Below, in pieces: positions 939 through 35,758 of a stretch of DNA of 64,000 bases. The translations under genes and the position numbers were made by a program. The DNA lies in contig JAKITS010000001.1 of assembly GCA_021648085.1 (NCBI GenBank), positions 132,948 through 196,947 of the forward strand, read 5' to 3'. The notes beneath the pieces were generated by a model. The model had not been told where the DNA came from and ran no database searches. It was given only the letters and a program-made list of their open reading frames with translations. Source of the stretch: Candidatus Magasanikiibacteriota bacterium (GTDB lineage: Bacteria; Patescibacteriota; Patescibacteriia; Magasanikbacterales; UBA922). Every line of letters starts with the position of its first letter. Within the stretch, counting starts at the first letter, position 1.

Positions 939-944
939 AATATT

Positions 945-2713: not shown

Positions 2714-2719
2714 GTGTAT

Positions 2720-4389: not shown

Positions 4390-4414
4390 TTTTAGTATTT
4401 ATATTCTTAATATT

Positions 4415-5647: not shown

Positions 5648-5651
5648 AAAT

Positions 5652-6593: not shown

Positions 6594-6597
6594 TATT

Positions 6598-7353: not shown

Positions 7354-7359
7354 ATTTTT

Positions 7360-8223: not shown

Positions 8224-9227
8224 CAAAGATAAAAATAGAAAAATTTAAAAGTTGTAAAAATAGAATTGTTTTACGGTTGAAACATTTTTTTTGTGGTTAT
8301 ATAACTTTTCATATTCGTCCTAAAAATTCTTCAGATATTAATATTTGGCATGATTCTTTGGTTAATTATTCTAAGGTTGCAATAATAATTCAAGGTCCTT
8401 TGTTAAAAAAAAATAATTTTACTTTGGAAACAGTAAGACTTTATAAAAAAATATTTAATAAATATGCAATTATTTTATCCACATGGGAAGATGAGGATGT
8501 TGACTATATAAATGAAATTAAAAAAGAGGGGATAGTAGTTTTGTTAAATAAAAAACCTGATTATTCTGGAATTTCTCATATTAATTATCAAATTGTTTCA
8601 ACTAGTAACGCTATTGCAAAAGCACAAGAAATTGGTGTAGAATACATTCTGAAAACAAGAACTGATTTAAGAATATATAATCCAAATTCAATTGAATTTC
8701 TTGTTAATTTTATAAGTTTATTTCCCGTAGATCCGCTTTATAAACAAAAAAAGAGAATTGCAGGTATTAGTTTGAACACTTTTAAATATCGTCCTTATAG
8801 TATTTCTGATATGGTTTTGTTTGGTTGTGTTGATGATATGGTGGATTATTGGGGGTGTGGTTTGGATATGAGAAAAGATTTTGCAAATCATGAAAAAATA
8901 GGAGATTGGTCGAGAGCTAGGTTGTGCGAGGTGTATCTGTCTGCAAATTATTTAGAAACTAAAGGTAGAAAACTTAAATGGACAATAGAAGACAGTTGGT
9001 CTATGTTTGCAAACTATTTTTGTATATTTGATCAGCAAAGCTTGGATATTTATTGGCATAAATACGCAAGAAATTTAGAATATAGAAGATTAGAATACAA
9101 AAATCTTAAAAATAGTCAGGAGCTAACTTTTTCTGAGTGGTTAAATATGTTTTACAATTTAAACAATAAAAAAAATATTCCAGAATATATTTTAAGTCAG
9201 AAATTTAAAGAAAAAATAAAGCAATAA
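8220..9227 (+). CDS. Hypothetical protein in the glycan cluster
   Basis: Long ORF. The track start 8172 overlaps the upstream gene. The ATG at 8220 (ATGA overlap with the upstream stop) is preferred. No recognisable motif. Confidence 0.35.
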   Translation: MTKIKIEKFKSCKNRIVLRLKHFFCGYITFHIRPKNSSDINIWHDSLVNYSKVAIIIQGPLLKKNNFTLETVRLYKKIFNKYAIILSTWEDEDVDYINEIKKEGIVVLLNKKPDYSGISHINYQIVSTSNAIAKAQEIGVEYILKTRTDLRIYNPNSIEFLVNFISLFPVDPLYKQKKRIAGISLNTFKYRPYSISDMVLFGCVDDMVDYWGCGLDMRKDFANHEKIGDWSRARLCEVYLSANYLETKGRKLKWTIEDSWSMFANYFCIFDQQSLDIYWHKYARNLEYRRLEYKNLKNSQELTFSEWLNMFYNLNNKKNIPEYILSQKFKEKIKQ

Positions 9228-9287
9228 CTTTTTTATTCATATGTTTTAATTTAAATTTCAATAATTAATTTTAAAAATAAATATAAT

Positions 9288-10349
9288 ATGACAGACGACA
9301 CAATAAATGTTCAGGTAAACAGTTTTGATATAGAGAATACGAAAAAAGAAAGTTCATTTACTTCAACAGGAGATAAATTGTTATATCACGAAAAAGCCAT
9401 TGAAGACCTTAGGTGGAAAAAAAATCATCCTATAGTTTTACATATAATGCCTACAGAAATTTGTAATTTGCGGTGTGTATTTTGTTCTGTAGCTCAAAGA
9501 GGTGAAGAGGGGAAATTATTACCAGACCTGACTATGGACCAGATTAAAAGTGTGGTAACAGAATTTAAAAAGATGGGTCTAAAAGCTGTTATTTTAAGTG
9601 GGGGAGGTGAGCCGTCTGTATATCGACATATCAATGAGTTATTAGAGTATCTACATTCAGAAGGTTTGGAAATTGGGATGATATCTAATGGGGTAGTATT
9701 ATCAAATAAGGTTGATGAGGACAAGTTGAAGTATTTAACTTGGTTAAGGATCTCAATAAATGCTCTTGATTATGTTCCAGATATTAAAATACCTAAGTTA
9801 GATTCAGAAAAAACAACATTAGGGTTTAGTTACATTTGGAATCCGCTATCATCAGAAGAGGTTATAAATAAAATAAAAAACAAAGTACAAGAAATTTCAA
9901 CTACAAACAAAGTTGAATACATTAGATTATTACCCGATTGCAATCTTGAAACAGGTGAATTGGAGGCTGCACATGAAAAATTAAGAAAAATTACAAAAAG
10001 ACTTGGTGCACCTTTCTTCCATCAATATAAAACACATATAACACCAAAAGAATGTCATCTCGGAAGAGTTCATCCGGTACTTTATGTGGATGGATATGTG
10101 TATCCATGTGATTCTCTGGTTTTAAATTCCCCAGCTGATGACAAGAAATTTCATAGAGAATTTGCTTTATGTAAATGGGATGAGGTTGAAGAGTTTTATT
10201 CACAAAAAATAAACGGCACATTAATAAATACTGAAAAATGCCACAATTGTGTATTTAGTCGTCAAAATGAACTTTTGTCTAAAATTATTAACACAAAAGA
10301 TGAACTACCTAAACCAAACAAAGACTTAAAACATAAAAATTTTATTTAA
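9288..10349 (+). CDS. Radical SAM enzyme
   Basis: 'TEICNLRCVFCS' CxxxCxxC cluster followed by the glycine-rich 'VILSGGGEPS' SAM-binding motif. Confidence 0.75.
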   Translation: MTDDTINVQVNSFDIENTKKESSFTSTGDKLLYHEKAIEDLRWKKNHPIVLHIMPTEICNLRCVFCSVAQRGEEGKLLPDLTMDQIKSVVTEFKKMGLKAVILSGGGEPSVYRHINELLEYLHSEGLEIGMISNGVVLSNKVDEDKLKYLTWLRISINALDYVPDIKIPKLDSEKTTLGFSYIWNPLSSEEVINKIKNKVQEISTTNKVEYIRLLPDCNLETGELEAAHEKLRKITKRLGAPFFHQYKTHITPKECHLGRVHPVLYVDGYVYPCDSLVLNSPADDKKFHREFALCKWDEVEEFYSQKINGTLINTEKCHNCVFSRQNELLSKIINTKDELPKPNKDLKHKNFI

Positions 10350-10355
10350 TTTTTT

Positions 10356-10997
10356 ATGAAAAATGATTTTGATAGAGAATACTATGAAGACGGGCTTGTA
10401 ACTGGTAAGTCTGGCTATGTTAATTATAGGTGGATGCCAGAGTTAACAATAAAAATGGCGTATAATATTATAAAACATCTTAATCTTAAGGATGGTGAAT
10501 CTGTATTAGATTTTGGATGTGCAAAAGGTTTTGTTGTTAAATCTTTGAAGATATTAGACATAAACGCTTATGGTTGTGATATTTCATCTTATGCAATAGA
10601 TAATCTTGAAACAGAAGTTAGAAATTGTTGTAAATTGATTAATTCTGAATCAAAAAGTGTTATTCCTTTTGAAAAAAAGTTTGATTGGATTATGAGTAAG
10701 GATGTGTTAGAGCACATAAGTGAAGAGGGTCTGGATATATTTTTGGAGGAATCATTTGGTAAAACTGATAAAATGTTTCACATAATTCCTTTGGCTGATA
10801 AAAAAGGGAGTTATATAGTGCCTGATTATGAATTTGACAAAACACATATTTTGAGAAAAGATTTAAATTGGTGGATTCAAAAATTTAAATCAAAAGGGTG
10901 GAATAATGTTTCATTTGAATACAAAATAAAAGGAATAAAGGAGAATTGGACAAATAAATATGCTTTTGGGAATGCTTTTTTTATAGTTAAAAAATAA
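10356..10997 (+). CDS. Class I SAM-dependent methyltransferase
   Basis: 'VLDFGCAKGFV' motif I. Confidence 0.6.
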   Translation: MKNDFDREYYEDGLVTGKSGYVNYRWMPELTIKMAYNIIKHLNLKDGESVLDFGCAKGFVVKSLKILDINAYGCDISSYAIDNLETEVRNCCKLINSESKSVIPFEKKFDWIMSKDVLEHISEEGLDIFLEESFGKTDKMFHIIPLADKKGSYIVPDYEFDKTHILRKDLNWWIQKFKSKGWNNVSFEYKIKGIKENWTNKYAFGNAFFIVKK

Positions 10998-11016
10998 TTC
11001 CGTTAAAATAAAATTT

Positions 11017-11949
11017 ATGTTGAGTTTCAGTGAAAATAATGGGTTATTTCCAACGCCAATTTTATTGGTTATTTTTAATAGACCGGAAAAATTGAAAAAC
11101 TTAATGAAGATTTTGTCTCAAGTTAAACCAGAAAAATTATATATTTCTGCTGACGGCCCTAGAAAAAATAACTTAAAAGACGTGGAGTTTTGTAAAAGAG
11201 CAAGAAATATAGCAACAAATATAAACTGGCCTTGTGAAATTTACACTAATTTTGCTACAGAAAATTTAGGACTTTCTGGAAATAGAGGTTTGGAAACTGC
11301 ATTTAACTGGTTTTTTTCTATTGAACCAGAAGGTATAATTTTTGAGGATGATCATCTACCATCATTGGATTATTTTAATTATGCACAAACTCTTTTGTCT
11401 AAATATCGTGATGAGGAAAAAGTTATGATGATATGTGGAACAAATTTTCAAGGTGAGATTGAGGGTGATGGTGCAAGTTACTATTTCTCTATATATCCAA
11501 CTTGGGGGTGGGCTACTTGGAGAAGGTCGTGGGATAAATATGACCGTGAAATGAAAGGTTTAGATAGTTTTTTGAATTTAAAAAAAATTGACGAAATACT
11601 ATACAATTTAAAACAGAAAAAATATTGGATTAATTTTTTTAAAAAAATTAAAAATGGTAAGTTTCATTTTATGGATTCTAAATTAATGTTTGCAATGTGG
11701 AACTCCAATAGTGTATGTATAATACCGAATAGTAATTTAATAGAAAATATTGGTTTTGGAGAGGGTGCTACAAATACATTTGACGAGTATGGTTTGTCTA
11801 TGGTTAGAAGAGGGTTGAAAGAAATTAATCACCCAAAAACAATAACAGTAAACAGAACTGCAGATGATTTTTTTTATAACAAAGTTTGCAAAAGAAGTTT
11901 ATTCCAAAAAATTAAATACAAAATAAAATTTTTATTTAGGGAATTATAA
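11017..11949 (+). CDS. Putative GT-A fold glycosyltransferase, paralog of 1745..2713
   Basis: See the 1745 feature for the shared blocks. Confidence 0.4.
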   Translation: MLSFSENNGLFPTPILLVIFNRPEKLKNLMKILSQVKPEKLYISADGPRKNNLKDVEFCKRARNIATNINWPCEIYTNFATENLGLSGNRGLETAFNWFFSIEPEGIIFEDDHLPSLDYFNYAQTLLSKYRDEEKVMMICGTNFQGEIEGDGASYYFSIYPTWGWATWRRSWDKYDREMKGLDSFLNLKKIDEILYNLKQKKYWINFFKKIKNGKFHFMDSKLMFAMWNSNSVCIIPNSNLIENIGFGEGATNTFDEYGLSMVRRGLKEINHPKTITVNRTADDFFYNKVCKRSLFQKIKYKIKFLFREL

Positions 11950-11957
11950 ATATAAAA

Positions 11958-12734
11958 ATGAAAAAAAGAATATTACACTTTATTAAATTTTTTTTACGTA
12001 AGTTTGGAGTTATAATTATTAAGCCAAAAGATGTAAATATAATAAGTAGGCTTAAAAAAAAATTTATACATAATGAAAGAAGTTTCGTGTCAGGACTAAC
12101 TAAGAGGCTGGCCGATTCTTTATATTGCCATGCTTCCCCAGGCGTTATCGAATTAATTATTGTTTATTTATCTAAATATTTAAAAAATAACAAAGAAAAT
12201 AATAAATTACTTAATCTGGGTGGAGGAACTGGACAAGTATCTGATATTTTTCGTGAGATTGGTTTCAATGTTTATAATGTGGATCTTGAAGAAAAAAATG
12301 AAAGTGAAAAAAAAATAAGGTTTGATTTAAATAGCAGTAAAGAGCTTCCGTTTTCTTCTTCTTTTTTTAATGTTGTTGTATGTTCGGAAATAATAGAACA
12401 TATTGAGAATCCATGGAAACTCTTCAGGGATGCAAAAAGGGTTTTAAAAAAAGATGGGATTTTAATAGTGACAACTCCAAATGTACAATCGTTGTATAGT
12501 AGGATTAAATTTTTGTTTAAAGGATACTTACATTGGTTTACTCTCGAATGTTTTTCTTATCATATAAATCCGGTATTTAAATGGGAAATAGACTTGATTG
12601 CAAAAAAAAATAATTTCGATGTTTTAAAAATAATGGGTAGTGGAGATTACTTTTTGTCTAGAGATAATAGAAATTATAAAAAAATTATAAGAAATAATGA
12701 AAGTTTGATTATTTTTTTAAAAAATAATGCATGA
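11958..12734 (+). CDS. Class I SAM-dependent methyltransferase
   Basis: 'LLNLGGGTGQVS' motif I and 'VVCSEIIEHIENP' post-II region. Confidence 0.65.
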   Translation: MKKRILHFIKFFLRKFGVIIIKPKDVNIISRLKKKFIHNERSFVSGLTKRLADSLYCHASPGVIELIIVYLSKYLKNNKENNKLLNLGGGTGQVSDIFREIGFNVYNVDLEEKNESEKKIRFDLNSSKELPFSSSFFNVVVCSEIIEHIENPWKLFRDAKRVLKKDGILIVTTPNVQSLYSRIKFLFKGYLHWFTLECFSYHINPVFKWEIDLIAKKNNFDVLKIMGSGDYFLSRDNRNYKKIIRNNESLIIFLKNNA

Positions 12735-13582
12735 TAGTAATTAAACTAAAAGGTGGCTTAGGAAATCAATTATTCCAATATGCATTTGGGAGCCTTCTTG
12801 CTTCTAAAAGAAAAGAGGAACTGTTTTTGGATAAAGATATTTTAGGTGCTAAAAAAGATAGTTATCGTCAGTGTGGTTTAAAACATTTTAACATTGGTAA
12901 TAGTATCGTTACTTTTAATGAAGTGCAGAAAATTAAATATCCTTTTGGTATTATTTCAAAAATTTGGCGTGGATTTAAAGGTAAAATACTGAAAATACAT
13001 AATGTTGGCTGGAATCCACGAATTTTGAATTCTAAAAAGAGTTATTTTGATGGGTATTGGCAGAGTTATAAATATCCAAAAATAATAAGGGAGAAATTAT
13101 TAAAAGAGCTTACTCTTAAAAACCCTATTAAAGATAAATATTATAATATTTTGGAAAAAATTAATAACTCAAATTCAATTTCTTTACATGTCAGAAGGGG
13201 GGATTATGTGAATAATCAAAAAACTGCCAAGGTTCATAATATTTGTAATTTAGAATATTATGAAAAGGCAATAGAAAAAATTTCTAAAAAAATAGACAGT
13301 CCAATATTTTTCATTTTTTCTGACGATATTGGGTGGGTAAAAAATAATTTGAAAATTAAAAATTCTACATTTTTTGTTTCTGACACAAATATTGAAGATT
13401 ATGAGGAGTTAATAATAATGAGTAAATGTAAACATAATATTATTGCGAATAGTACATTTAGTTGGTGGGGTGCTTGGTTAAATCAAAATAAAACTAAAAT
13501 AGTCATCGCACCTGCTAAATGGAATAATAAATATCAAAAAAAATATAAAGACTTAATTCCACCAAGTTGGATAAAAATATAA
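12731..13582 (+). CDS. Alpha-1,2-fucosyltransferase (GT11)
   Basis: N-terminal 'KLKGGLGNQLFQYAFG' is the diagnostic GT11 motif. 'HVRRGDY' is a second GT11 block. Confidence 0.8.
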   Translation: MIVIKLKGGLGNQLFQYAFGSLLASKRKEELFLDKDILGAKKDSYRQCGLKHFNIGNSIVTFNEVQKIKYPFGIISKIWRGFKGKILKIHNVGWNPRILNSKKSYFDGYWQSYKYPKIIREKLLKELTLKNPIKDKYYNILEKINNSNSISLHVRRGDYVNNQKTAKVHNICNLEYYEKAIEKISKKIDSPIFFIFSDDIGWVKNNLKIKNSTFFVSDTNIEDYEELIIMSKCKHNIIANSTFSWWGAWLNQNKTKIVIAPAKWNNKYQKKYKDLIPPSWIKI

Positions 13583-13583
13583 T

Positions 13584-14363
13584 ATGAACTTGTTTAAAAT
13601 CAGTATAATAATGATAAATTATAATCGTACTGAGTATATAAAAGAAGCTATACAGAGCGTTTTAGACCAATCACTCAAAGATTGGGAACTTGTAATTGTT
13701 GACGATGGCTCTACTGATTCTAGTGAAAATATTATAAAATCATTCAGTGAAAAAGATGATAGAATTGTTTATTTTAAAAATGAAGAGAATTTAGGAATAG
13801 TATATTCTAGGAATAAGACATTAAAAAATTCAAAAGCTGATTTAGTTGCAGTGTTAGATAGTGATGATATTTGGGTGGATAATTTTAAATTAGAGAAGCA
13901 AGTTGGTAAATTTAAAGAAAATAAAAATCTTGTTTTGGTTGGCGGTGGTGTTATTGAGATAGATAAAAACGGAAAAGAGAAAAAAAGATATTTAAATCCT
14001 AATAGCGATGAAAAAATACGAAAAAATATTTTATTTAAAAATCCTTTTGCGCATTCTAGTGTAATGTTTAAGAAAAGTATTGTGGAAGGTGTTGGAGGTT
14101 ATAATAATCTAGAGATAGGTGAAGATTATGATCTGTGGTTGCGTTTGGGAAAAGAGGGTAAATTTTTAAATTTAGATGACTATCTTGTAAAATATAGAGT
14201 GCATAGCAAAAATACCTGCAACACAAAAATTATTCAGGCCTTAAAAAATAATATAATTTTAGTGTTGAAATATAGAAAATTTTATGGTAGATTTTATATT
14301 GCTATAACAAGACGATTATTTCGTTATATTGTTGGTTTGGTTTTATTTAAAACAAAAAGATGA
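13584..14363 (+). CDS. Family 2 glycosyltransferase
   Basis: 'ISIIMINYNRTEYIKEAIQSVLDQ...VIVDDGSTD...LDSDD'. Confidence 0.8.
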   Translation: MNLFKISIIMINYNRTEYIKEAIQSVLDQSLKDWELVIVDDGSTDSSENIIKSFSEKDDRIVYFKNEENLGIVYSRNKTLKNSKADLVAVLDSDDIWVDNFKLEKQVGKFKENKNLVLVGGGVIEIDKNGKEKKRYLNPNSDEKIRKNILFKNPFAHSSVMFKKSIVEGVGGYNNLEIGEDYDLWLRLGKEGKFLNLDDYLVKYRVHSKNTCNTKIIQALKNNIILVLKYRKFYGRFYIAITRRLFRYIVGLVLFKTKR

Positions 14364-15472
14364 AAATTCTTTATTTAATTACAAAATCAGAACAGGGTGG
14401 GGCGCAAACACATGTGGCTCAGCTTATGAAACACTTCAAAGAAAAGGATTGGGATATAACTTTGATGTCATCTTCGCAAGACGGCTGGCTTGGAAAAAAG
14501 GCGGCTGATTTTGGTGTTGATTTTATACCGAGTAAATACTTAACCAATACTATAAATCCACTAAAAGTTTGGAAGAGCTTTTTGGAAATTCGCAAGGTTG
14601 TAAATAAGACTAATCCGGACATTGTTCATTGTCATAGTTTTTTTGCTGGTTTCCTCGGGAGGCTTGCTGTAAAAGGTAAATATCCTACAATTTTTACACC
14701 ACACGGTTGGGGTTTCAATGTTGGGGTTTCTTTTTTTCGCAAACATTTTGCAATTCAAGTCGAAAGATTTTCTAGTCGTTTTACAAACAAAATACTTTGT
14801 GTTTCAGAATATGGAAAGAAACTAGCTATTCAATATAAAATAGATAAACCAGAAAAATTTATTGTAATTTATAATGGAATTGAAGATGTTTTACCAACTA
14901 TCGAATGCGCTAAAACACTAAGTGAAAAAGTGAATTTTGTCTTTGTTGGAAGATTGACAGAACCAAAAAAGCCTTCATTTCTATTAAAAGCAATTACTCT
15001 TTTACCAGAAGATATAAAACAAAAAGTTAATGTGACAATAATAGGAAAAGGTGAGAAAGAAAAAGAAATAAAAGAATTTATAATTAAAAACAATTTAGAA
15101 AAAACAGTAATTCTAAAAGGTCTTTTGTCTAGAGAGGATGTTTTTGATCAGCTTTGCAATAAGACTGATGTTTTTACCTTATTTTCAAAGTGGGAAGGTC
15201 TGCCAATTACTATTCTAGAGGCTATGAGCGCCAGCTTGCCGGTAGTAGCATCGAAAGTTGGAGGAATACCCGAGCTTGTCTCAAAAACTAATGGTTTCTT
15301 AATTGAGCGAGATGATATAAATTCTTTGGTAAACGCTATAACAACTCTTGTAAAAGAAAGTGATTTAAGAATAGAAATGGGTAAAAATTCAAGAAAAAAA
15401 ATACAGGAAAATTTCACCCTATCTATAATGTTTAGTAAAGTGGAAGAAGAGTATAATAATTTGTTAAAATAA
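14360..15472 (+). CDS. Family 4 (GT-B) glycosyltransferase
   Basis: 'FSKWEGLPITILEAMSASLPVVASKVGGIPE' GT4 C-terminal signature. Confidence 0.8.
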   Translation: MKILYLITKSEQGGAQTHVAQLMKHFKEKDWDITLMSSSQDGWLGKKAADFGVDFIPSKYLTNTINPLKVWKSFLEIRKVVNKTNPDIVHCHSFFAGFLGRLAVKGKYPTIFTPHGWGFNVGVSFFRKHFAIQVERFSSRFTNKILCVSEYGKKLAIQYKIDKPEKFIVIYNGIEDVLPTIECAKTLSEKVNFVFVGRLTEPKKPSFLLKAITLLPEDIKQKVNVTIIGKGEKEKEIKEFIIKNNLEKTVILKGLLSREDVFDQLCNKTDVFTLFSKWEGLPITILEAMSASLPVVASKVGGIPELVSKTNGFLIERDDINSLVNAITTLVKESDLRIEMGKNSRKKIQENFTLSIMFSKVEEEYNNLLK

Positions 15473-15476
15473 TTTT

Positions 15477-16157
15477 ATGAAGATTGTTTTGATTGGATAT
15501 GGTGAAATAGGAAGTTCATTGTACGAGGTTTTTTCTAATTATGCACAAATAGAAATTTGTGATATTGATAAAAAAGTAGAAGGGAAGTTTGATATGATGT
15601 TTGTGGCAATTCCATATACAGAAAATTTTGTGGAGATTGTAAAAAATTACCAACTAAAACACAAGCCAAAAAGTACTATAATCTTCTCAACAGTTGCAAT
15701 TGGTACTTCAAGTCAGCTGGGTGCTGTACATTCTCCGGTTGAGGGAATGCACCCCACACTTGCAGATAGTATTCGTAGGGCTATAAGATGGGTTGGTGGT
15801 GAATCTACTGATTTTATCGGTCTTTTGGAAAAAGCTGGGATCAAGTTTAAGCAAGTCAAAAAACCAGAACATACAGAATTTTTAAAATTAAGATCCACTT
15901 CTCTTTATGGTGTGAATATTGAGTATGCTAGATATTGTAAAAAAGTAGCAGATGAAATAGAAATGGATTTTGAATATGTAAAAGATTTCGATTTGGATTA
16001 TAATAAACTATATAGAGATTTGGGAAAAGTTAATTATCAACGATATATATTAAATCCACCAGAAGGTAAAATAGGTGGACATTGTGTAGTGCCAAATGCA
16101 AAGATGCTTGATAGTCAATTCCCAGATGATTTTTTAAAAAAAATATTTAAAGATTAA
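15477..16157 (+). CDS. NAD(P)-binding Rossmann-fold protein of unknown function
   Basis: 'MKIVLIGYGEIGSSL' dinucleotide-binding motif. Confidence 0.35.
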   Translation: MKIVLIGYGEIGSSLYEVFSNYAQIEICDIDKKVEGKFDMMFVAIPYTENFVEIVKNYQLKHKPKSTIIFSTVAIGTSSQLGAVHSPVEGMHPTLADSIRRAIRWVGGESTDFIGLLEKAGIKFKQVKKPEHTEFLKLRSTSLYGVNIEYARYCKKVADEIEMDFEYVKDFDLDYNKLYRDLGKVNYQRYILNPPEGKIGGHCVVPNAKMLDSQFPDDFLKKIFKD

Positions 16158-16161
16158 ACAT

Positions 16162-17064
16162 ATGTCAAAATGTATTGTAACAGGTGGAGCGGGTTTTATA
16201 GGGTCTCATATCACAGATAAATTAATTGAACTCGGAAACGAGGTTTTAGTAATAGATAATTTAAGCTTGGGTAAAAAAGAATTTGTTAATTCAAAAGCTG
16301 AATTCCACCAAGTGGATATAAGAAATTTTGAGGAAATTAAAAATTTATTTGAAGGTGTTGGGGTTGTTTTTCATTTGGCAGCCGAGCCAAGACTTCCAAT
16401 TTCTATCGAAAAACCAATTGAAACTAACGATATAAATGTAAGTGGAACTTTGAATATACTTGAAGCTTCTAGGTTAGCGGGTGTAAAAAAAGTAGTTTTC
16501 TCTTCTTCTTGTGCTGTTTATGGAGATTGTGCGGTTATGCCAATTACTGAGAATTATCATAAAAATCCAAAAAGCCCCTATGGACTTCATAAATTGATAG
16601 GTGAGCAATACATGAAACTATACTCAGAACTGTTTGATTTGCCGACAGTTTGCTTAAGATATTTCAATGTCTACGGTCCTAGAAAATTGGCAGATGGGGG
16701 ATATCCAATGGTTATACCTGTATTTTTAAAGCAAATTGCAGAAGGTAAAAAAATGACAGTAATTGGAACAGGAGAAAATACAAGAGATTATGTCCATGTA
16801 AATGATGTTGCAGATGCAAATGTAAAAGCATGGGAATCAGAAGTTGTAAACGGAGAGTCTATAAATATAGGATTTGGAGAACAGACTAGTGTAAATAAAA
16901 TTGCAGAACATATTGGAGGTGAGAAAGAGTATCTTGAGCCTCGTATTGGAGAAATGTGTCGTGCCCAAGCTAATATTGAAAAAGCAAAAGAACTTCTAAA
17001 TTGGGAACCAGCTGTAAAATTTGAAGAGGGTATTGCTGGGTTAAAAAAAGAAATGGGGCTTTAA
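16162..17064 (+). CDS. NAD-dependent epimerase/dehydratase (UDP-hexose 4-epimerase-like)
   Basis: 'IVTGGAGFIGSH' and catalytic 'SPYGLHK' YxxxK. Confidence 0.8.
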   Translation: MSKCIVTGGAGFIGSHITDKLIELGNEVLVIDNLSLGKKEFVNSKAEFHQVDIRNFEEIKNLFEGVGVVFHLAAEPRLPISIEKPIETNDINVSGTLNILEASRLAGVKKVVFSSSCAVYGDCAVMPITENYHKNPKSPYGLHKLIGEQYMKLYSELFDLPTVCLRYFNVYGPRKLADGGYPMVIPVFLKQIAEGKKMTVIGTGENTRDYVHVNDVADANVKAWESEVVNGESINIGFGEQTSVNKIAEHIGGEKEYLEPRIGEMCRAQANIEKAKELLNWEPAVKFEEGIAGLKKEMGL

Positions 17065-27694: not shown

Positions 27695-27766
27695 GGCCTA
27701 TTCGTCTAGTGGTTAGGACGCCGGGTTCTCATCCCGGTAAGAGGGGTTCGATTCCCCTATAGGCTA
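27695..27766 (+). tRNA. tRNA-Glu (anticodon CUC)
   Basis: Cloverleaf with acceptor GGCCTAT/ATAGGCT, anticodon arm 'CCGGG TTCTCAT CCCGG' and T-arm 'AGGGG TTCGATT CCCCT'. No encoded CCA. Confidence 0.75.
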
Positions 27767-27796
27767 CATATAGATCTATTTAAAAATAAATCTAAT

Positions 27797-27870
27797 GGCT
27801 GGGTAGCTCAGTTGGTAAGAGCGCAGGATTCATAACCCTGAGGTCGGGAGTTCGACTCTCCCCCCAGTCA
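27797..27870 (+). tRNA. tRNA with CAU anticodon (elongator Met or Ile2-lysidine type)
   Basis: 'GGCTGGGTAGCTCAGTTGGTAAGAGC' D-arm, anticodon loop 'TTCATAA', T-arm 'GGGAG TTCGACT CTCCC', G1 pairs with C72 so it is not an initiator. Confidence 0.75.
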
Positions 27871-27878
27871 CAGAGGAA

Positions 27879-27914
27879 AGCAAATTAGGCAGAATAAGCA
27901 GATTAAGTAAGTAC
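27879..27914. repeat. Motif C (~32-35 nt), copy 1 of 3
   Basis: 'AGCAAATTAGGCAGAATAAGCAGATTAAGTAAGTAC'. Matches the reverse complements of 47661-47692 (28/31) and 38862-38893. Confidence 0.55.
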
Positions 27915-27950
27915 AAAAACAAAAAAACTCCATTTGGAGTTTTTTTTGTT
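27915..27950 (+). terminator. Intrinsic terminator after the tRNAs
   Basis: 'AAAAAACTCCATTTGGAGTTTTTTTT'. Confidence 0.65.
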
Positions 27951-28103
27951 TTAAGTTTTTACTTAACTACGTAGTAGTCTTAGTTCTTAACCTCGGAGAG
28001 GTCTTGTATAGTGGGTTGCATTATAGCAATAAATCAGAATACATTATATAATATATAGTATTGATAAAATGCAATCTTATGAAAAATAATGTTGTACAAA
28101 AAT

Positions 28104-28138: not shown

Positions 28139-29161
28139 ATGATAAAAGACAAACCAAACAATAAAATAATTATATATACGGCTGACGGCGGTAATCCAAC
28201 AATTAATGTTCGTATCGAAGGAAAAACTGTATGGCTTTCACAAATTCAATTGGCTGAACTTTTTGGAACATCAAAAGCAAATATTAGCTTACATATTAAA
28301 AATATCTTTGAAGAAGGTGAATTAAGTAAAGAACCAACTGTTAAGGAATACTTAACAGTTCAAAAAGAAGGAGATAGAGATGTTTCTCGTCATATAGAAT
28401 ATTATAATCTAGACCTCATAATATCTCTTGGTTATCGGGTAAAGTCGCAAATCGCAACTCACTTTCGAAAATGGACAACAGAACGTCTTAGTGAGTATCT
28501 CGTAAAAGGTTTTACCATGGACGACGAACGACTCAAAGGTATGGGTGGAGGAAGCTTTTGGAAAGAATTACTAGATCGTATTCGTGATATCCGAAGCAGT
28601 GAAAAGGTGCTGTACCGCCAAGTGTTGGATTTGTATGCGACTAGTGTTGATTATGACCCAAATAGCTCTGAATCAATCAAGTTTTTCAAAATAGTACAAA
28701 ACAAACTTCATTATGCCACAAACAAAAATACTGCAGCTGAAACTATTTTTACACGCGCGGATGCCGAAAAAGATTTTATGGGTTTGAAAACATTTGCAGG
28801 TATATTACCAATATTGTCAGAAGTTGGGGTTGCCAAAAACTATCTTACCGAAGACGAGTTGTTTATATTAAACCGTATGGTTTCGGCTTTCTTTGATTTG
28901 GCAGAAATAAAAGCAAAAGAACAGAAAAAAATGTATATGGCAGACTGGGTGGCAGAGTTGGATAAATTTGCTGAAAATTATGGAAAGGGTGTTTTGAAAG
29001 ATGCAGGAAAAATAAGCCATAAACAAGCAGTAAAAAAAGCTCAAAAAGAATACAGACAATTTCAAGCTAAAACATTATCACCAGTTGAGGAGGCGTATTT
29101 GAAAAATATCAAAAACATACAAAAAGAGGTTGAACAAAAAACCAAGTCTTCTAAAAAATAA
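28139..29161 (+). CDS. rhuM: RhuM-family virulence/Fic-DOC-related protein
   Basis: N-terminal 'IIIYTADGGNPTINVRIEGKTVWLSQIQLAELFGTSKANISLHIKNIFEEGEL' is the hallmark RhuM block. Length 340 aa. Confidence 0.7.
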   Translation: MIKDKPNNKIIIYTADGGNPTINVRIEGKTVWLSQIQLAELFGTSKANISLHIKNIFEEGELSKEPTVKEYLTVQKEGDRDVSRHIEYYNLDLIISLGYRVKSQIATHFRKWTTERLSEYLVKGFTMDDERLKGMGGGSFWKELLDRIRDIRSSEKVLYRQVLDLYATSVDYDPNSSESIKFFKIVQNKLHYATNKNTAAETIFTRADAEKDFMGLKTFAGILPILSEVGVAKNYLTEDELFILNRMVSAFFDLAEIKAKEQKKMYMADWVAELDKFAENYGKGVLKDAGKISHKQAVKKAQKEYRQFQAKTLSPVEEAYLKNIKNIQKEVEQKTKSSKK

Positions 29162-29273: not shown

Positions 29274-29319
29274 TTATTATGATAAATTCAAAATAGGCAA
29301 AATCAAGAATAAAAATAAA

Positions 29320-29358
29320 TAAACTCCTTGAAGAGTCAGGTTGGAGTTTTTTTGTTTT
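29320..29358 (+). terminator. Intrinsic terminator
   Basis: 'AACTCCTTGAAGAGTCAGGTTGGAGTTTTTTTGTTTT'. Confidence 0.5.
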
Positions 29359-29439
29359 CTAAGATATTTTGTATTTTTGTAGTTTTTTGCTACCATAATA
29401 ATATATTGTTGAAATAATAAGAAATGTTTAGAATATGGT

Positions 29440-30087
29440 ATGAGAATTAAAAATAAATTAAAAATTGAGCGTCCTAGGGAGAAAATGAAAAAATACGGCC
29501 CTGAAAAACTAAAAGATGAAGAGCTTTTGGCAATTTTATTACGCACTGGTACGAAAAAAATGGATGTAATTAAATTAGCTCAAAAGATATTACGTGATTT
29601 TAAAGATGAGAAAATTCTTGATGTAACTATTGTTGATTTGCAGAAAATTCATGGTTTAGGTTTAGCAAAAGCATGTGAAATCGTGGCATGTTTTGAGCTT
29701 GGACGTAGAAAATTACAAGGAAAGAAAACAAATATTTTACTTACACCAAAAGATGTCTGGGAAGCAATGGTAGATATTCGTAATAGTAAAAAAGAACATT
29801 TTGTTGTTTTTTATCTTAATAGCAGAAGTCAAGAAATCAAACGAGAGATTGTTTCGATAGGTACAATAAATGCGAGTCTTGTCCATCCACGGGAAGTTTT
29901 TGAGAGTGCAATTAAAAACAATGCTTCATCAATAATTCTTGCTCATAATCACCCATCTGGAGATCTTGAACCGTCACAAGATGATATAGAAATTACAAAA
30001 AAACTTGTTTATGCAGGAAAAATTTTGGATATTCAAGTGGTTGATCATGTAATAGTATCTAATAAAGAATTTAAGAGTTTTATATAA
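29440..30087 (+). CDS. radC: RadC-like JAB/JAMM-domain protein
   Basis: 'ILAHNHPSGDLEPSQDD' JAMM motif. N-terminal 'EELLAILLRTG' helix-hairpin-helix region. Confidence 0.85.
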   Translation: MRIKNKLKIERPREKMKKYGPEKLKDEELLAILLRTGTKKMDVIKLAQKILRDFKDEKILDVTIVDLQKIHGLGLAKACEIVACFELGRRKLQGKKTNILLTPKDVWEAMVDIRNSKKEHFVVFYLNSRSQEIKREIVSIGTINASLVHPREVFESAIKNNASSIILAHNHPSGDLEPSQDDIEITKKLVYAGKILDIQVVDHVIVSNKEFKSFI

Positions 30088-30088
30088 A

Positions 30089-31291
30089 ATGCCAAAAAAT
30101 AATATTATAATTAATGATGGGGGATATTATGCTATAAAAGGTTTTGCTTATCAAATAGATAAAGCAATTTTAGAAATCTTAAATACTGATGACGAGAGTA
30201 AAAGTATAAATATTGAGCAAATTCAAGACATAGATTTAGCTGATTCAGTTATACAAGTTAAATATAAAGAAACTACTAAGCTAGTTCCCTCTCAAGTAAA
30301 CAAGCCAATATCACAACTCATTGAAGAATTTAAAGTAGATAACACAAAAAAATATATTTTGTATACTTATTTTGATGACTTAAATGGATATGAGGAAAAA
30401 GTAGATCAAGATAAAAAAATTTCAAAGGATACTTTGGATGAATTTTTAGGGAACCTAAAAAATGATTTTACAGAACAGGAAAGAATAGACTTTGTTAATA
30501 ATTTTTATTTAGATTTTTCTCCAGAGTTTCAATCTCAATTTAATTCTGTAATTTTAAAATTAAAAGAACAGAGTTTTATTGGAAATACTGACGAAGAGGC
30601 AATGTTTTATTATGCAAATATTTCAGACTTTTTGTATAAATTAGTCACAAATAATCCAACCATAAAAATTAAAAACAGGACGTGTACTCAAAAAGAAATA
30701 TTTGATTATTTAAAAAACGGTAAGTGTCTAATCTTTAATTCTAGTTTTAGAGAATATCAAGGTGATCAAAAATATTTTACTTTTATTAAAAAACAACATT
30801 TTTCTAATAGAAATATAGATTATTTTGAAAGATTCATTATTGTAGAATTAAGTAGAAATGAAAGCATTGCAGATATAAAAGAAGTTGTTTTTAAAATTAA
30901 AGATGCATTTTATAACAAATCAGGAACATGGAGAGGTAAAGTAATAAAATCTCCTGCCCCGTATATTTATATGATTAATATTTCAGATGATAGTTTAATT
31001 CAGTTAAAAACTGAATTATTAAAAGAAAGTACAATTTTCAAAGATGGTTTTGATTTTGCTGGTGCTAATTTTTCTTTAGATTCAATAAAACAAAATTCTA
31101 CAATCCACAACAATCTTTGTTTAAAATTAGTTAATAATGAAGATATTTTAAAGCGATTAATAAGTGAAGATTTTCAACATCCAAAAGAAATTTATCAATT
31201 TTACACAAATGAAAGTATTATAATTAAACCTAATATGAAAAATATTGAAATACAAATAAAAAACATATCAGATATTATTTTTATTCTTTAA
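30089..31291 (+). CDS. DUF4297 (Cap4-type nuclease domain)-like protein, putative partner of the HerA-like ATPase
   Basis: The N-terminus 'GGYYAIKGFAYQIDKAIL' resembles the DUF4297/Cap4-nuclease N-terminal signature as recalled. It lies 11 nt upstream of a HerA-type ATPase, matching the gene order of the DUF4297-HerA defence pair. No SIR2 motif. Confidence 0.5.
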   Translation: MPKNNIIINDGGYYAIKGFAYQIDKAILEILNTDDESKSINIEQIQDIDLADSVIQVKYKETTKLVPSQVNKPISQLIEEFKVDNTKKYILYTYFDDLNGYEEKVDQDKKISKDTLDEFLGNLKNDFTEQERIDFVNNFYLDFSPEFQSQFNSVILKLKEQSFIGNTDEEAMFYYANISDFLYKLVTNNPTIKIKNRTCTQKEIFDYLKNGKCLIFNSSFREYQGDQKYFTFIKKQHFSNRNIDYFERFIIVELSRNESIADIKEVVFKIKDAFYNKSGTWRGKVIKSPAPYIYMINISDDSLIQLKTELLKESTIFKDGFDFAGANFSLDSIKQNSTIHNNLCLKLVNNEDILKRLISEDFQHPKEIYQFYTNESIIIKPNMKNIEIQIKNISDIIFIL

Positions 31292-31302
31292 CTTAAAATA
31301 TC

Positions 31303-33012
31303 ATGACAAATTCAACTGATCAAAAACTTGCTTTCGTAACTTCCGTTTATCCAAATAAAGTAAAAATTGAAGTAGAAAATCTAACTGCTTTTAAAGATAA
31401 TATAGATGACGCACTTGGTGATTTAAAAATTGGCTCTTATCTTGAAATTTCTGATAATGAAGGTTGTAAACTTATTGCTATTATTGAAAGCTATCAAATA
31501 GAATTAAAAGAAAGAATTATAGAAAATGAACAAGGTGAAAAAAATAAAGAAACTTACAACGCTTACGTATTAGAAGCTAGTCCTCTCGGTACAATAAAAG
31601 GTAAAGAATTTACTAGAGGTGGCGATGCTTTGACTATTCCACCAACAGAGGTAGGACCTGCAAGTGAAGAAAATATAAAATTAATTTATGAAAATGGATT
31701 TGAGCCACAAGAAAAGTTTTTATTTGCAAAATTAGCACAAGATGAAAATATTGAAGTTCCTGTAAATGGGAATAAATTTTTCAATAAACATTTCGCAATT
31801 GTTGGGTCTAGTGGTTCAGGGAAATCGCATACGATAGCAAAAATTATACAAAAAGCTGTTGCAGAGAAAAATGGTGAATTCGAATTAAACAATTCTCACA
31901 TTATAATATTTGATATTCACAACGAATATAAAACAGCTTTCCCAGATGCCAACTTTTTGGATATTAGCAACTTAGTTTTGCCTTATTGGTTACTCAATAG
32001 TGAAGAATTAGAAGAACTATTTATTGATACGGAAGCTAATGACCACAATCAAAAAAATGTTTTCAAAGAATCAATTGTAACGAATAAAAAGGACAGTTTA
32101 ATTAAAGAAGATGGTGAAAGTCATGAAGATTTTAACAATAGAAAAGAAAAGATTCATTATGATTCTCCTGTTTTGTTTGATATTCAAAAAGTTTTGGAAT
32201 TTGCTCAAAACAAAAATCAAGAAATGGTTCCAGGTGCAAATAATAAAGAAAAACAGGGTTCATTATTTGGAAAATTAACCAATTTTGTCAGTAGATTAGA
32301 GAATAAATTGAATGATAAAAGATTTGAATTTTTATTAGGAGATAATTCAAAAGAAATTTCTTTTGAAGATACTTTGAGACAATTTATTGGATATAAAGAT
32401 GACAATAAATCAAATGTAACAATTATTGATTTAAGTGGTGTTCCTTTTGACGTTCTTAGTGTCACAGTAGCTTTAATTTCAAGAATATTATTTGATTATG
32501 GATATTTTTATAAAAAATATTTAAACGAAGGTGTTGATTTGGAAACTCCATTATTGCTTATATATGAAGAAGCACATAAATATGTACCAAAAAATGATTT
32601 TGCAAAATTTAGAGCATCGAGGAATGCTATTGAAAGAATTGCAAAAGAAGGAAGAAAATATGGTGTAACTTTAGGTATTATAAGCCAAAGGCCATCTGAA
32701 ATATCTGAAACCATCTTCTCTCAATGCAATAACTTTATTGCTATGAGATTAACAAATCCAACTGATCAGAATTATGTAAAAAGATTGTTACCAGATACAT
32801 TGGGGAATCTAATTGATAATTTACCATCATTACAATCTGGAGAAGGACTTTTGCTTGGAGAATCAATAATTATGCCATCTTTAGTTAAAATAGAAAAATG
32901 TGATAACGATAAACAGCCATCTTCAAATGATGTGAAATATTTGGAAACATGGAAAGAGGAATGGAAAGATGTTGATTTTAATAACATAATTAAAAAATGG
33001 AAATATGAATAA
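31303..33012 (+). CDS. HerA/FtsK-superfamily ATPase (DUF87-like)
   Basis: Walker A 'VGSSGSGKSHT', Walker B 'LLLIYEEAHKYVP', the 'AKEGRKYGVTLGIISQRPSEIS' arginine-finger block typical of HerA/VirB4-type ATPases, and an N-terminal beta-barrel-like region. Confidence 0.75.
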   Translation: MTNSTDQKLAFVTSVYPNKVKIEVENLTAFKDNIDDALGDLKIGSYLEISDNEGCKLIAIIESYQIELKERIIENEQGEKNKETYNAYVLEASPLGTIKGKEFTRGGDALTIPPTEVGPASEENIKLIYENGFEPQEKFLFAKLAQDENIEVPVNGNKFFNKHFAIVGSSGSGKSHTIAKIIQKAVAEKNGEFELNNSHIIIFDIHNEYKTAFPDANFLDISNLVLPYWLLNSEELEELFIDTEANDHNQKNVFKESIVTNKKDSLIKEDGESHEDFNNRKEKIHYDSPVLFDIQKVLEFAQNKNQEMVPGANNKEKQGSLFGKLTNFVSRLENKLNDKRFEFLLGDNSKEISFEDTLRQFIGYKDDNKSNVTIIDLSGVPFDVLSVTVALISRILFDYGYFYKKYLNEGVDLETPLLLIYEEAHKYVPKNDFAKFRASRNAIERIAKEGRKYGVTLGIISQRPSEISETIFSQCNNFIAMRLTNPTDQNYVKRLLPDTLGNLIDNLPSLQSGEGLLLGESIIMPSLVKIEKCDNDKQPSSNDVKYLETWKEEWKDVDFNNIIKKWKYE

Positions 33013-34402
33013 AATATACACAACAAAAAATGATGTATTAAAAGAAGCTAAGAAAATTCTTAATCAATCTTTGCGTGATATAATGATTGATAATAATATT
33101 GATATTGAAAAATTGGAACAAAAACTTTTTCAATATAATAAAAGACGAAAAGGACTTTTGGGTGAGTTGGTTGAGGAATTCGTTTTTGGGCTTAATGTAA
33201 ATAATAATGCTGAGGCAGATTTTGTTATTGCTGGTATAGAATTAAAAACCAATCCACTTAAAAAATCTAATAAAAAAGATTTTGTTTCTAAGGAACGTTT
33301 GGTTTTTTCAATGATTAATTATAATAAAATAGTAAATGAAACATGGGAAAATAGTTCATTTCTTAAAAAAAATAAAGTTCTTTTGCTGATGTTTTATCTG
33401 TGGCTTAAAGATCAGAGTATTTTGGATTATGAGTTTAAATTTGTACATTTACTTGACTTACTAAATGGTCTATCTGGTGAAGATATATATCAAATACAAA
33501 AGGATTGGGAATATATTGTCGCAAAAATTAAACGGGGAGAAGCTCATTTGTTGTCTGAAGGGGATACGTATTATTTAGGTGCTTGTACAAAAGCTGCAAA
33601 TAGTAGGGTTGTACGTGACCAACCAAAATCACGTATATTAGCAAAACCAAGAGCTTTTTCTTTTAAACAACAATATTTAAACTTTTTAATTCAAAAAGAA
33701 TTACTCGGTAAGTCTGTAGATACAGAATCAATTTTTAAGAAAAAACGACGATTAGCTACGGTAGAAGATATTGTAAAAGAAAAGTTTTCTAAATTTATAG
33801 GAAAAACAGATCTTGAGATTAAGAATATTGTGGGTTGGGAAATTGAGAAAAAACCAAAAAGTTGGAAACGTCTTTTGGCAAATAGAATGCTCGGTGTTAA
33901 ATCAAATAAAATTGAGGAATTAGAAAAAGGAAATATAAAAATGAAAGTAATTACATTGGAATATACAGGTACTCTTAGGGAATCACTTTCTTTTCCAGCA
34001 TTTAATTATAAAGATTTAATAACACAGGTTTGGTATGATGACGAAAATCAGAAAATGAGTGATTTATATGAGTTATTAGAAACGAAAAAATTTTTATTTG
34101 TTGTATTTCAAAAACAAAAAGATAGTAAAGAGATTATTTTTAGAAAAATAAAATTTTGGAATTTTCCAATGAAAGATTTGTTGGAAGTTAGAAATGTATG
34201 GGATAAAACAATTGATTGTATTAATAATGGAGAATATAAAAATTTACCAAAAATGAGTGAGAATGGTGTTGCTCATGTGCGACCGCATGGAAAAAATTCA
34301 AAAGATACAATAGAAACTCCACAAAAAACACAAGAAACAAAAAGGTCATTTTGGTTAAATGCAAAGTATATTCAAAAAGTACTCGAAAATGATATTGATT
34401 AA
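33005..34402 (+). CDS. MutH/Sau3AI-family type II restriction endonuclease (GATC-family candidate)
   Basis: 'EADFVIAGIELKTNP' aligns with the E. coli MutH catalytic block 'EQDFAALGVELKTIP' (D, E-x-K). Further blocks 'SKERLVFSMINY' and 'QKDWEYI...GEAHLLSEGDTYYLGACTKAANS...AKPRAFSFKQ' resemble Sau3AI as recalled. The start overlaps the HerA stop (ATGAATAA). Confidence 0.65.
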   Translation: MNKIYTTKNDVLKEAKKILNQSLRDIMIDNNIDIEKLEQKLFQYNKRRKGLLGELVEEFVFGLNVNNNAEADFVIAGIELKTNPLKKSNKKDFVSKERLVFSMINYNKIVNETWENSSFLKKNKVLLLMFYLWLKDQSILDYEFKFVHLLDLLNGLSGEDIYQIQKDWEYIVAKIKRGEAHLLSEGDTYYLGACTKAANSRVVRDQPKSRILAKPRAFSFKQQYLNFLIQKELLGKSVDTESIFKKKRRLATVEDIVKEKFSKFIGKTDLEIKNIVGWEIEKKPKSWKRLLANRMLGVKSNKIEELEKGNIKMKVITLEYTGTLRESLSFPAFNYKDLITQVWYDDENQKMSDLYELLETKKFLFVVFQKQKDSKEIIFRKIKFWNFPMKDLLEVRNVWDKTIDCINNGEYKNLPKMSENGVAHVRPHGKNSKDTIETPQKTQETKRSFWLNAKYIQKVLENDID

Positions 34403-34456
34403 AATTTGATCAATATCATTATTTTTGTTAAAATATAATTAATAAATTTTTTTAAT

Positions 34457-35704
34457 ATGAAAATAATAAGAGTGGTTGAATTATTTGCTGGAGTCGGAGG
34501 GTTTCGAATCGGGCTTAAACAAGCAGATAATGAAAAAGTGAAATATAAAACTATTTGGAATAGTCAGTGGGAACCAAGTACAAAAACACAACATGCTTCA
34601 GAAATATACAAAAAACATTTTGGTGAAAAAGGACATTCTTGTGAGGATATTAGAAATGTTGTTGATAATAAATTTCACACAATTCCTGAACATGATTTAT
34701 TAGTTGGTGGTTTTCCTTGTCAAGATTATTCTGTAGCACGTACAGCAAATCAAGCAAATGGTTTAATTGGTAAAAAAGGTGTTTTGTGGTGGTCTATTTT
34801 TGATATTTTAAAAAAAAGTGGAGAAAAAGCTCCCAGTTTTTTATTGTTAGAAAATGTTGATAGACTTCTTAAATCACCAACTAAACAAAGGGGGCGTGAT
34901 TTTGCTGTAATGCTCTCCTCTTTGGCTTCACTTAATTATATAGTGGAATGGAGGATTATTAATGCAGCAGAATATGGTTTTCCACAACGACGAAGACGTG
35001 TTTTTATTTTAGCTTATAAAAAAGGAACAAAACTTAATAAAAAAGCACGGAATATAAATTTAGAAGATTGGATAAATAAAAAGAGTGTAATGGCAAAAGG
35101 TTTTCCTATTTATAAAAATAATAATTTGTTAACCTCGTTTCAGATTAACACTAATCCGGCTAAAGTTTCTGAAGAATTTTCAAAAAATTCTCCAAAAATA
35201 AGTCCTTTTTATAATAGTGGTATAATGATTGATAATAAAATATATACAAAAAAAGTTCATCCAAAATATAATGGTAAAAAAGTAATTCTAAAAGACGTTT
35301 TAATTGATGAGAAACATGTACCGGAAGAATTTTTTATTGATGAGAAAACATTTGAAAGGTGGAAATATTTAAAAAATAGTAAAACAGAAAAGAGATGTAC
35401 TAAAGATGGTTTTGAATATAGTTATTCAGAAGGTGGTATGATTTTTCCAGATAATTTAGAGAATGCATCTAGGACAATTGTGACAGGTGAAGGAGGCTCA
35501 TCACCTTCAAGGTTTAAACACGTTATTAAAACAAAAACAGGACGTTTACGCAGATTAACACCAATAGAATTAGAACGACTTAATATGTTTCCAGATAATC
35601 ATACAGAAGGTGTATCAAATACAAAACGAGCTTTTATAATGGGTAATGCTCTTGTTATCGGTGTTATCAAAAAATTAGGTCAAACACTTTCAGACTTTAT
35701 ATAA
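34457..35704 (+). CDS. DNA (cytosine-5)-methyltransferase
   Basis: Motif I 'ELFAGVGGFRIG', motif IV 'GGFPCQDYS', motif VI 'ENV', and a target-recognition domain between. Confidence 0.9.
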   Translation: MKIIRVVELFAGVGGFRIGLKQADNEKVKYKTIWNSQWEPSTKTQHASEIYKKHFGEKGHSCEDIRNVVDNKFHTIPEHDLLVGGFPCQDYSVARTANQANGLIGKKGVLWWSIFDILKKSGEKAPSFLLLENVDRLLKSPTKQRGRDFAVMLSSLASLNYIVEWRIINAAEYGFPQRRRRVFILAYKKGTKLNKKARNINLEDWINKKSVMAKGFPIYKNNNLLTSFQINTNPAKVSEEFSKNSPKISPFYNSGIMIDNKIYTKKVHPKYNGKKVILKDVLIDEKHVPEEFFIDEKTFERWKYLKNSKTEKRCTKDGFEYSYSEGGMIFPDNLENASRTIVTGEGGSSPSRFKHVIKTKTGRLRRLTPIELERLNMFPDNHTEGVSNTKRAFIMGNALVIGVIKKLGQTLSDFI

Positions 35705-35711
35705 ATTCATA

Positions 35712-35750
35712 AAAAACAAAAAAAACTCCTCTCGGAGTTTTTTTTGTTTT
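35712..35750. terminator. Bidirectional intrinsic terminator (island end / hup end)
   Basis: 'AAAAAACTCCTCTCGGAGTTTTTTTT' flanked by an A-run and a T-run. Confidence 0.7.
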
Positions 35751-35758
35751 GAGTTTTT

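Follow-up and report, generated by a model that had tools for sequence, protein, structure and literature searches.

A DUF4297-HerA pair and a Sau3AI-type restriction-modification pair side by side in a defence island of Candidatus Magasanikbacteria

Four genes at positions 30089-35704 of a 64,000-nucleotide stretch of contig JAKITS010000001.1 (hereafter the window), from a Candidatus Magasanikbacteria member of the candidate phyla radiation (CPR), encode a DUF4297 protein, a HerA-type ATPase, a Sau3AI-type nuclease and a C5 cytosine methyltransferase (MTase), and raise the question of whether they form one composite defence system or two neighbouring ones. An earlier reading, made from the sequence only, proposed one transcription unit in which the coupling of the nuclease to HerA could mark a fused or new modification-dependent module. 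The comparisons described here instead make it highly probable that two known, mechanistically independent anti-phage systems lie side by side in a low-GC (guanine plus cytosine) defence island at 28.1-35.7 kb. Both pairs are new members of known systems in a defence-island hotspot, and a new fused system is not supported.

Two gene pairs and their separation in related loci

The open reading frame (ORF) listing confirms the layout first described, with all four ORFs co-directional on the + strand at the same coordinates and separated by 11 nt, an 8-nt overlap and 54 nt. The quoted motifs are all present in the translations: the Walker A (GSSGSGKSHT) and Walker B (LLLIYEEAH) motifs of the second gene, EGRKYG, EADFVIAGIELKTNP, GGYYAIKGFAYQIDKAIL and FAGVGG / GFPCQ / ENV. 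Family scans likewise uphold the division of the locus into DUF4297+HerA and Sau3AI+C5 MTase. The first gene (30089..31291, + strand; 400 aa) codes for a DUF4297 protein, a Cap4-like PD-(D/E)xK nuclease effector, which is matched in PADLOC (3e-60), by the NCBIfam model DUF4297_antiphage (NF042945; 224.1 bits, under the 300-bit equivalog cut-off) and over its full length by PDB 8XAV_G (1.2e-26). No Pfam family, DUF4297/Cap4_nuclease included, was matched at E-values up to 0.1, and it is through its matches in PADLOC, NCBIfam and the PDB that the homology proposed for this gene is established. In the 8XAV_G alignment D47 and D49 correspond to D40 and D42, and Q56 and K58 to the catalytic Q53 and K55, the residues mutated to inactivate the DUF4297 nuclease (An et al. 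2024, PMC11291478). The second gene (31303..33012, + strand; 569 aa) encodes the predicted HerA hexameric ATPase/translocase, as indicated by Pfam DUF87 (7e-35), NCBIfam HerA_antiphage_2 (NF042944; 812.6 bits, slightly under the 850-bit cut-off) and PDB 8XAU_A (2.4e-179), and the two genes match both PADLOC models PDLC02187 and PDLC02188. As the NF042945 and NF042944 matches are full length yet fall under the curated cut-offs, the genes are divergent members of these families. Characterised DUF4297-HerA forms a ~1-MDa 12:6 complex in which ATP hydrolysis and non-specific double-stranded DNA (dsDNA) cleavage are activated, resulting in abortive infection, and the two-gene unit is functional in E. 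coli (PMC11291478). By homology, a HerA hexamer and twelve DUF4297 subunits would likewise assemble in this bacterium into a complex active both as an ATPase and as a non-specific dsDNA nuclease, acting alone in abortive infection.

The third gene (33005..34402, + strand; 465 aa) codes for a Sau3AI-family type II restriction endonuclease with putative GATC specificity. Besides Pfam MutH, the NCBIfam model restrict_Sau3AI (NF040973) is matched across residues 6-460 with 417.6 bits, above its 300-bit equivalog cut-off, while residues 46-410 are aligned with PDB 4PXG (phmmer, 1.2e-51) and residues 252-410 with the C-terminal domain structure 2REU, bearing out the MutH/Sau3AI-like assignment. The MutH-like catalytic D-(x)6-E-x-K is formed by D72, E79 and K81 within EADFVIAGIELK. 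Its partner, the fourth gene (34457..35704, + strand; 415 aa), encodes the expected C5 cytosine DNA methyltransferase (Pfam DNA_methylase, dcm, 209 bits, 1.6e-61; PADLOC PDLC03329, 550 bits) and shows 42-48% full-length identity to the dcm proteins that partner Sau3AI-family nucleases on Firmicute plasmids, the aligned part taking in the variable target-recognition region. In these distant plasmid loci the partner of the nuclease gene is always dcm and never HerA, and the two genes may be arranged in tandem, divergently or convergently. The nuclease presumably cuts unmodified GATC, with the MTase presumably protecting host sites as GATm5C. Nine GATC sites occur within the locus itself, and the host would thus need protective methylation if the nuclease is active.

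If the four genes formed one system, the two pairs might be expected to travel together, and their co-occurrence was surveyed from both sides. Among 80 HerA-anchored loci from GTDB species representatives of many phyla, DUF4297 lies directly upstream of HerA in 78, and no Sau3AI homolog was found within 10 kb in any (0/80). Conversely, DUF4297-HerA is absent from all 54 metagenome loci anchored on nucleases 38-77% identical to that of the window (0/54), in which the nuclease gene is followed by the C5 MTase gene wherever downstream sequence exists. Close HerA relatives (72-92% identical) without a Sau3AI gene occur in seven further loci (L001/L002, L004, L006 and L144-L147), and the HerA-to-Sau3AI arrangement is found among such relatives in L003 and L005 only, giving three of ten distinct close-HerA loci when the window is included. 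The separation of the pairs in homologous genomes, a refuting condition set by the sequence-only reading itself, speaks against a fused or modification-dependent module.

The junction that had suggested translational coupling is the 8-nt stop/start overlap ATGAATAA of HerA and the nuclease gene (33005..33012, + strand). The nuclease gene usually starts with ATGACTAA, of which ATGAATAA is the window form, and this start (ATGAnTAA) has a stop codon, TGA or TAA, in each of the frames not used by the nuclease. An 8-nt overlap is the commonest geometry with the upstream gene (12/46 loci), and the gene concerned is RadC in five loci, NOV_C-like in three, AbiU in two, unknown in one and HerA in one, the window only; the upstream stop lies no more than 27 nt from the nuclease start in 36/46 loci. 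The "...ND*" tail common to unrelated cargo proteins is therefore a product of the nuclease start, which encodes it. A 4-nt ATGA overlap, equally available at this start, was seen in none of the 46 loci, against 12 with the 8-nt form. The HerA-nuclease spacing is -8 nt in the window, whereas L005 and L003 have spacers of +2 and +66 nt, respectively, and the HerA C-terminus reads "...KKWKYE*" in the window and "...KKWKE*" in its relatives, which reflects a small indel at the junction. Given the recurrence with unrelated genes and the gaps in L003 and L005, the overlap is neither conserved nor specific to HerA.

The slot between radC and the nuclease gene

The left-hand neighbour of the four genes is a RadC gene (UPF0758_N plus JAB domain; 29440..30087, + strand; NCBIfam PRK00024, 237 bits against a cut-off of 180), which forms the conserved left anchor of a variable slot whose right anchor is the nuclease gene. 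RadC is located upstream of the nuclease in 35/54 of the Sau3AI-anchored loci, directly so in ~25. In others at least six alternative defence types, co-directional with RadC and the nuclease, occupy the slot: AbiU/AIPR (L094, L100), an OLD/GajA-like ATPase-TOPRIM nuclease (L098), PDC-M43A and PDC-M43B (L102), a 910-aa PDC-S53 helicase (L105), an unknown protein with an SNF2 helicase and NOV_C (L115, L126) and a small NOV_C protein (L099, L087, L088). The 458-aa cargo protein of L115 (516-1892) matched no family, and a 411-aa protein of L124 is likewise unannotated.

Nucleotide comparison delimits the insertion in the window. Similarity to the cassette-bearing loci L001 (85%) and L006 (89%) is confined to 30113-33018, and the empty-slot loci L086 and L127 align to the window as far as 30088/30089 and, after a break, from 33002 onward. 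The 2.9-kb cassette (~30089-33002) thus fills precisely the interval from the radC stop to the nuclease ATG. No inverted or direct repeats delimiting this cassette were found in the repeat search. In L006, a 79-kb contig of a Flavobacterium metagenome-assembled genome, the cassette (8031-11006) is flanked on one side by genes for a type IV secretion system coupling protein, a RadC-JAB protein and a D12 MTase and on the other by a large serine recombinase, a setting which is that of a mobile element, and in L144 it lies beside integrases. The window cassette shares 89% nucleotide identity with that of L006 over the first 1.9 kb and 82% over the last 0.7 kb, and the presence of an L006-like cassette in a CPR genome reflects either a recent transfer between phyla or mis-binning of the contig. 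The two cassette genes further show a mosaic pattern, with DUF4297 88% and HerA 75% identical to those of L006, and 64% and 85% to those of L005.

In a neighbour-joining tree of 38 nuclease proteins, built without support values, the three HerA-bearing loci fall within one subclade of eight without forming a monophyletic group. L005 is placed next to a NOV_C locus and L003 next to the PDC-S53 locus, and the AbiU, OLD, PDC-M43 and empty loci are interleaved elsewhere, so that cargo appears to turn over among close relatives. Outer-flank synteny shared with the window (PBP2, HU, RNase Y and TruB genes around radC and the restriction-modification (R-M) genes) was sought in the related loci as a sign of vertical inheritance and found for none of these except HU in L088. 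In the most probable reading, a unit of radC, Sau3AI-type nuclease and C5 MTase genes is the older resident, and a mobile DUF4297-HerA cassette was inserted between the radC stop and the nuclease ATG, a hotspot taken by other cargo in relatives. R-M and DUF4297-HerA would then act as separate layers of defence.

Transcription of the locus and its surroundings

The proposed single transcription unit is at odds with a promoter-like element ahead of the MTase gene (34406..34434, + strand), predicted by a promoter scan and by conservation. It consists of a -35 TTGATC (34406-34411), which contains GATC, a TG (34427-34428) and a -10 TAAAAT (34429-34434). The pattern TTGATC, 16-17 nt ending in TG, then TAnnnT recurs in 42/44 CPR-type related loci, with the -10 ending ~7 nt before the MTase ATG in about half of them, an arrangement that looks leaderless. 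The -35 region of the MTase genes in L086-L139 often reads TTGATCAA or TTGATCGA, followed by the extended -10. TTGATC-17-TATAAT is also found in three of the four distant Firmicute plasmid loci (L141, L142 and L143), whatever the orientation of the two genes. The MTase gene is probably read separately from this conserved promoter of its own, and the four genes are therefore not one obligate transcription unit. The GATC in the -35 may further point to feedback by methylation or MTase binding. R-M systems with their own target site in the methyltransferase promoter are known, CfrBI being an example, and a GATC-containing promoter was not found described in the literature on Sau3AI regulation. 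No conserved promoter was identified for the nuclease gene itself. As the terminator scan found none on the + strand between 30089 and 35704, the nuclease gene is probably transcribed together with RadC or the cargo, and sometimes probably coupled to it in translation as well.

The tight packing highlighted in the sequence-only reading is real, but it is the norm in this genome and begins at RadC, the stop codon of which (30085-30087) lies 1 nt ahead of the gene 1 ATG. Same-strand neighbours throughout the window (n=47) are separated by a median gap of 11 nt, with 24/47 gaps of 15 nt or less and 8/47 overlaps, and close packing is ordinary for this Magasanikbacteria genome. A further run of 19 co-directional genes (312-17064; GC 0.24-0.31) has gaps of mostly -4 to +8 nt.

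The island has a GC content of 0.24-0.29, compared with ~0.35 in its flanks, and is bracketed by two copies of a 49-nt terminator-like hairpin repeat (direct repeat D2; 86% identical). The left copy (27912..27960) was also retrieved in the terminator scan, and the right copy (35710..35758) ends the unit and contains a strong intrinsic terminator with a 17-bp stem (35713-35750). The hairpin core occurs exactly twice in the 64 kb, against 0.02 occurrences expected by chance. The repeats, which enclose the island from RhuM to the MTase gene, may mark an island boundary or serve as module terminators; an island-flanking hairpin was sought in the related loci and not found. The hairpin is made up of an A-tract/CTCC-loop-GGAG/T-tract, and a degenerate third copy (29311-29359) lies between RhuM and RadC. 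Directly upstream of the island are tRNA-Glu and tRNA-Met genes (27695..27871, + strand; ARAGORN and Rfam), the latter ending ~40 nt before the left hairpin, and the Rfam scan yielded these two tRNAs and nothing else. The first gene of the island (28139..29161, + strand) encodes a RhuM-family protein (Pfam Virulence_RhuM, 6e-103) assigned to the PADLOC candidate defence family PDC-S05 (8e-144). RhuM homologs also occur near the unit in L005, L120, L128 and L146.

GATC is observed 114 times in the window, against 141 expected (observed/expected, O/E, 0.81). GATC avoidance was considered as a proxy for specificity and set aside as uninformative, being weaker than that of GGCC (O/E 0.38) and ACGT (0.58). 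The depletion of the latter two suggests past or present pressure from other enzymes, such as those of the HaeIII and MaeII types. No nuclease relatives were found in viral contigs. In some of the related loci the R-M pair is decayed or altered: in L124 an rve-family insertion sequence (1165-2400) separates the nuclease and MTase genes, and in L132-L135 the nuclease match is confined to the N-terminal ~225 residues, followed in L133-L135 by ~680 nt and an intact MTase gene, with L132 ending before any MTase gene. An ORF of ~153 aa recurs beside the R-M genes in L103 (219-680), L104, L106, L099 (4940-5398) and L131 and does not occur in the window island. From the look of its sequence, with a C-terminal …GWKVISIWDTD…, we take it to be a candidate Vsr very-short-patch-repair endonuclease; Vsr is the usual companion of C5 MTases.

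Alternative explanations and comparison with known systems

Several observations weigh against the reading as two independent systems. HerA is kept directly upstream of the nuclease in three diverged loci (the window, L003 and L005), and some persistence or co-selection of this juxtaposition is conceivable, as is a single ancient gain of HerA with later replacements, given a nuclease tree without support values. The related loci are unbinned metagenome contigs. No terminator was found between the two systems, so a shared transcript is probable, and neither a recombinase nor a clear att site was found that would account for the entry of cargo into the slot. The mild under-representation of GATC in the window lends no independent support to GATC specificity. 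The co-directional genes, the HerA/nuclease overlap, the lack of an internal terminator and the recurrence of the arrangement in three contigs could even be taken to favour one integrated, possibly modification-dependent machine, in which the nuclease is tied to HerA in both function and translation. This is nevertheless very improbable and is largely refuted by comparative genomics: the two anchored surveys recovered no co-occurrence (0/80 and 0/54), the overlap is gone in L003 and L005 and present where RadC, AbiU or NOV_C lies upstream, and both pairs are complete, self-sufficient known systems, the MTase gene having its own promoter. It is also rather improbable that the systems are independent and their adjacency selected, with first-line R-M and second-line abortive infection co-expressed as layered or synergistic defences and Sau3AI ends possibly serving as entry points for HerA/DUF4297. 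The slot consistently takes co-directional, abutting abortive-infection or nuclease-NTPase cargo, three diverged loci retain HerA upstream of the nuclease, and HerA-family motors have been described in DNA-end processing (HerA-NurA literature). However, the adjacency lacks specificity, with at least six unrelated cargo types and most loci empty, cargo turns over between close relatives, and DUF4297-HerA is sufficient in E. coli.

RadC may itself be functional. The real unit would then be RadC-(cargo)-R-M, with the JAB-domain RadC serving in nucleic-acid processing or in the control of restriction and with DUF4297-HerA in an accessory role. The linkage of RadC to R-M is kept while the outer flanks vary completely, and RadC and the nuclease gene overlap by 8 nt in five loci. 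RadC is fused in L001 (29-1840) to the Dam-like D12 MTase of an AlwI-type R-M system, and a RadC-JAB gene and a D12 MTase gene lie upstream of the cassette in L006 (4794-6084), which hints at a tie between RadC and DNA modification or restriction. That RadC is a domain for nucleic-acid processing which occurs in mobile elements has also been proposed (PMC5512222). Against these points stand the Sau3AI-family R-M genes of Firmicute plasmids, which are without RadC, its absence from some CPR-type loci (L103, L111 and L126) and its scoring as an ordinary full-length family member that is maybe just a conserved chromosomal neighbour, all of which make such a role unlikely. Downstream of the L001 fusion gene lie the genes for an AlwI-type nuclease and an N6/N4 MTase, and all three precede DUF4297-HerA. 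A low probability is likewise assigned to the radC-nuclease junction being a dedicated docking site, where interchangeable abortive-infection or nuclease-NTPase cargo is placed at codon precision and co-expressed with the nuclease as one regulated unit, with the GATC of the MTase promoter as control point. The cargo would comprise DUF4297-HerA, AbiU, OLD, PDC-M43, PDC-S53 and SNF2/NOV_C and may often be translationally coupled to the nuclease; if so, restriction and second-line defence might cooperate, for instance through restriction-made ends feeding HerA/DUF4297. Two independent systems, brought together by insertion into a variable slot, remain by far the best explanation of the locus.

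This outcome removes a tempting false lead, as in a compact genome neither adjacency nor a stop/start overlap amounts to a new composite defence system. It also places DUF4297-HerA and Sau3AI-type R-M on record for a CPR bacterium, few defences having been characterised in that group, and reveals near-identical cassette DNA common to a CPR genome and a mobile element of Flavobacterium. Two by-products of the analysis, the slot and the promoter, are possibly more useful than the original fusion claim. The slot anchored by radC and R-M, with its six or more alternative cargos, can be mined for unknown cargo genes, and the family-wide GATC-containing -35 ahead of Sau3AI-type methyltransferase genes suggests a simple autoregulatory circuit that is a candidate for methylation sensitivity.

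DUF4297-HerA has reportedly been described as a two-gene anti-phage system by Gao et al. in 2020. The window pair resembles this system (PDB 8XAU-8XAY, 8ZIQ and 9C1M) in the order DUF4297 then HerA, in the conserved catalytic Q-x-K, upstream aspartates and Walker A/B motifs and in an intact HerA C-terminus. It differs in its scores below the NCBIfam equivalog cut-offs, its CPR host and the location of the cassette inside a radC/R-M operon, probably with no terminator of its own and on a shared transcript. The other pair is similar to the Sau3AI R-M system of Staphylococcus aureus 3A (PDB 4PXG and 2REU; MutH/Sau3AI fold) in its two-domain nuclease with a D...E-x-K site, its score above the NCBIfam Sau3AI equivalog cut-off and the adjoining C5 methyltransferase gene. 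In the window lineage, however, the nuclease gene abuts the gene upstream, be it radC or a cargo gene, and a conserved promoter of its own was not identified. The presumed recognition site GATC inside the -35 of the MTase promoter recalls CfrBI-like R-M systems, and its conservation suggests that feedback may be possible in the window too.

Islands and hotspots of defence genes with conserved genes on their flanks have reportedly been recognised by Makarova in 2011 and in hotspot studies of E. coli and Pseudomonas. Like these, the radC-nuclease slot has conserved flanks between which unrelated defence systems are swapped among close relatives, and the window island combines a low GC content with nearby tRNA genes. 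Unlike in the known hotspots, one of the flanks is here itself a defence system (R-M), the hosts are CPR bacteria and the cargo is co-oriented and operon-like, its insertion being exact to the codon between the stop of one gene and the start of the next.

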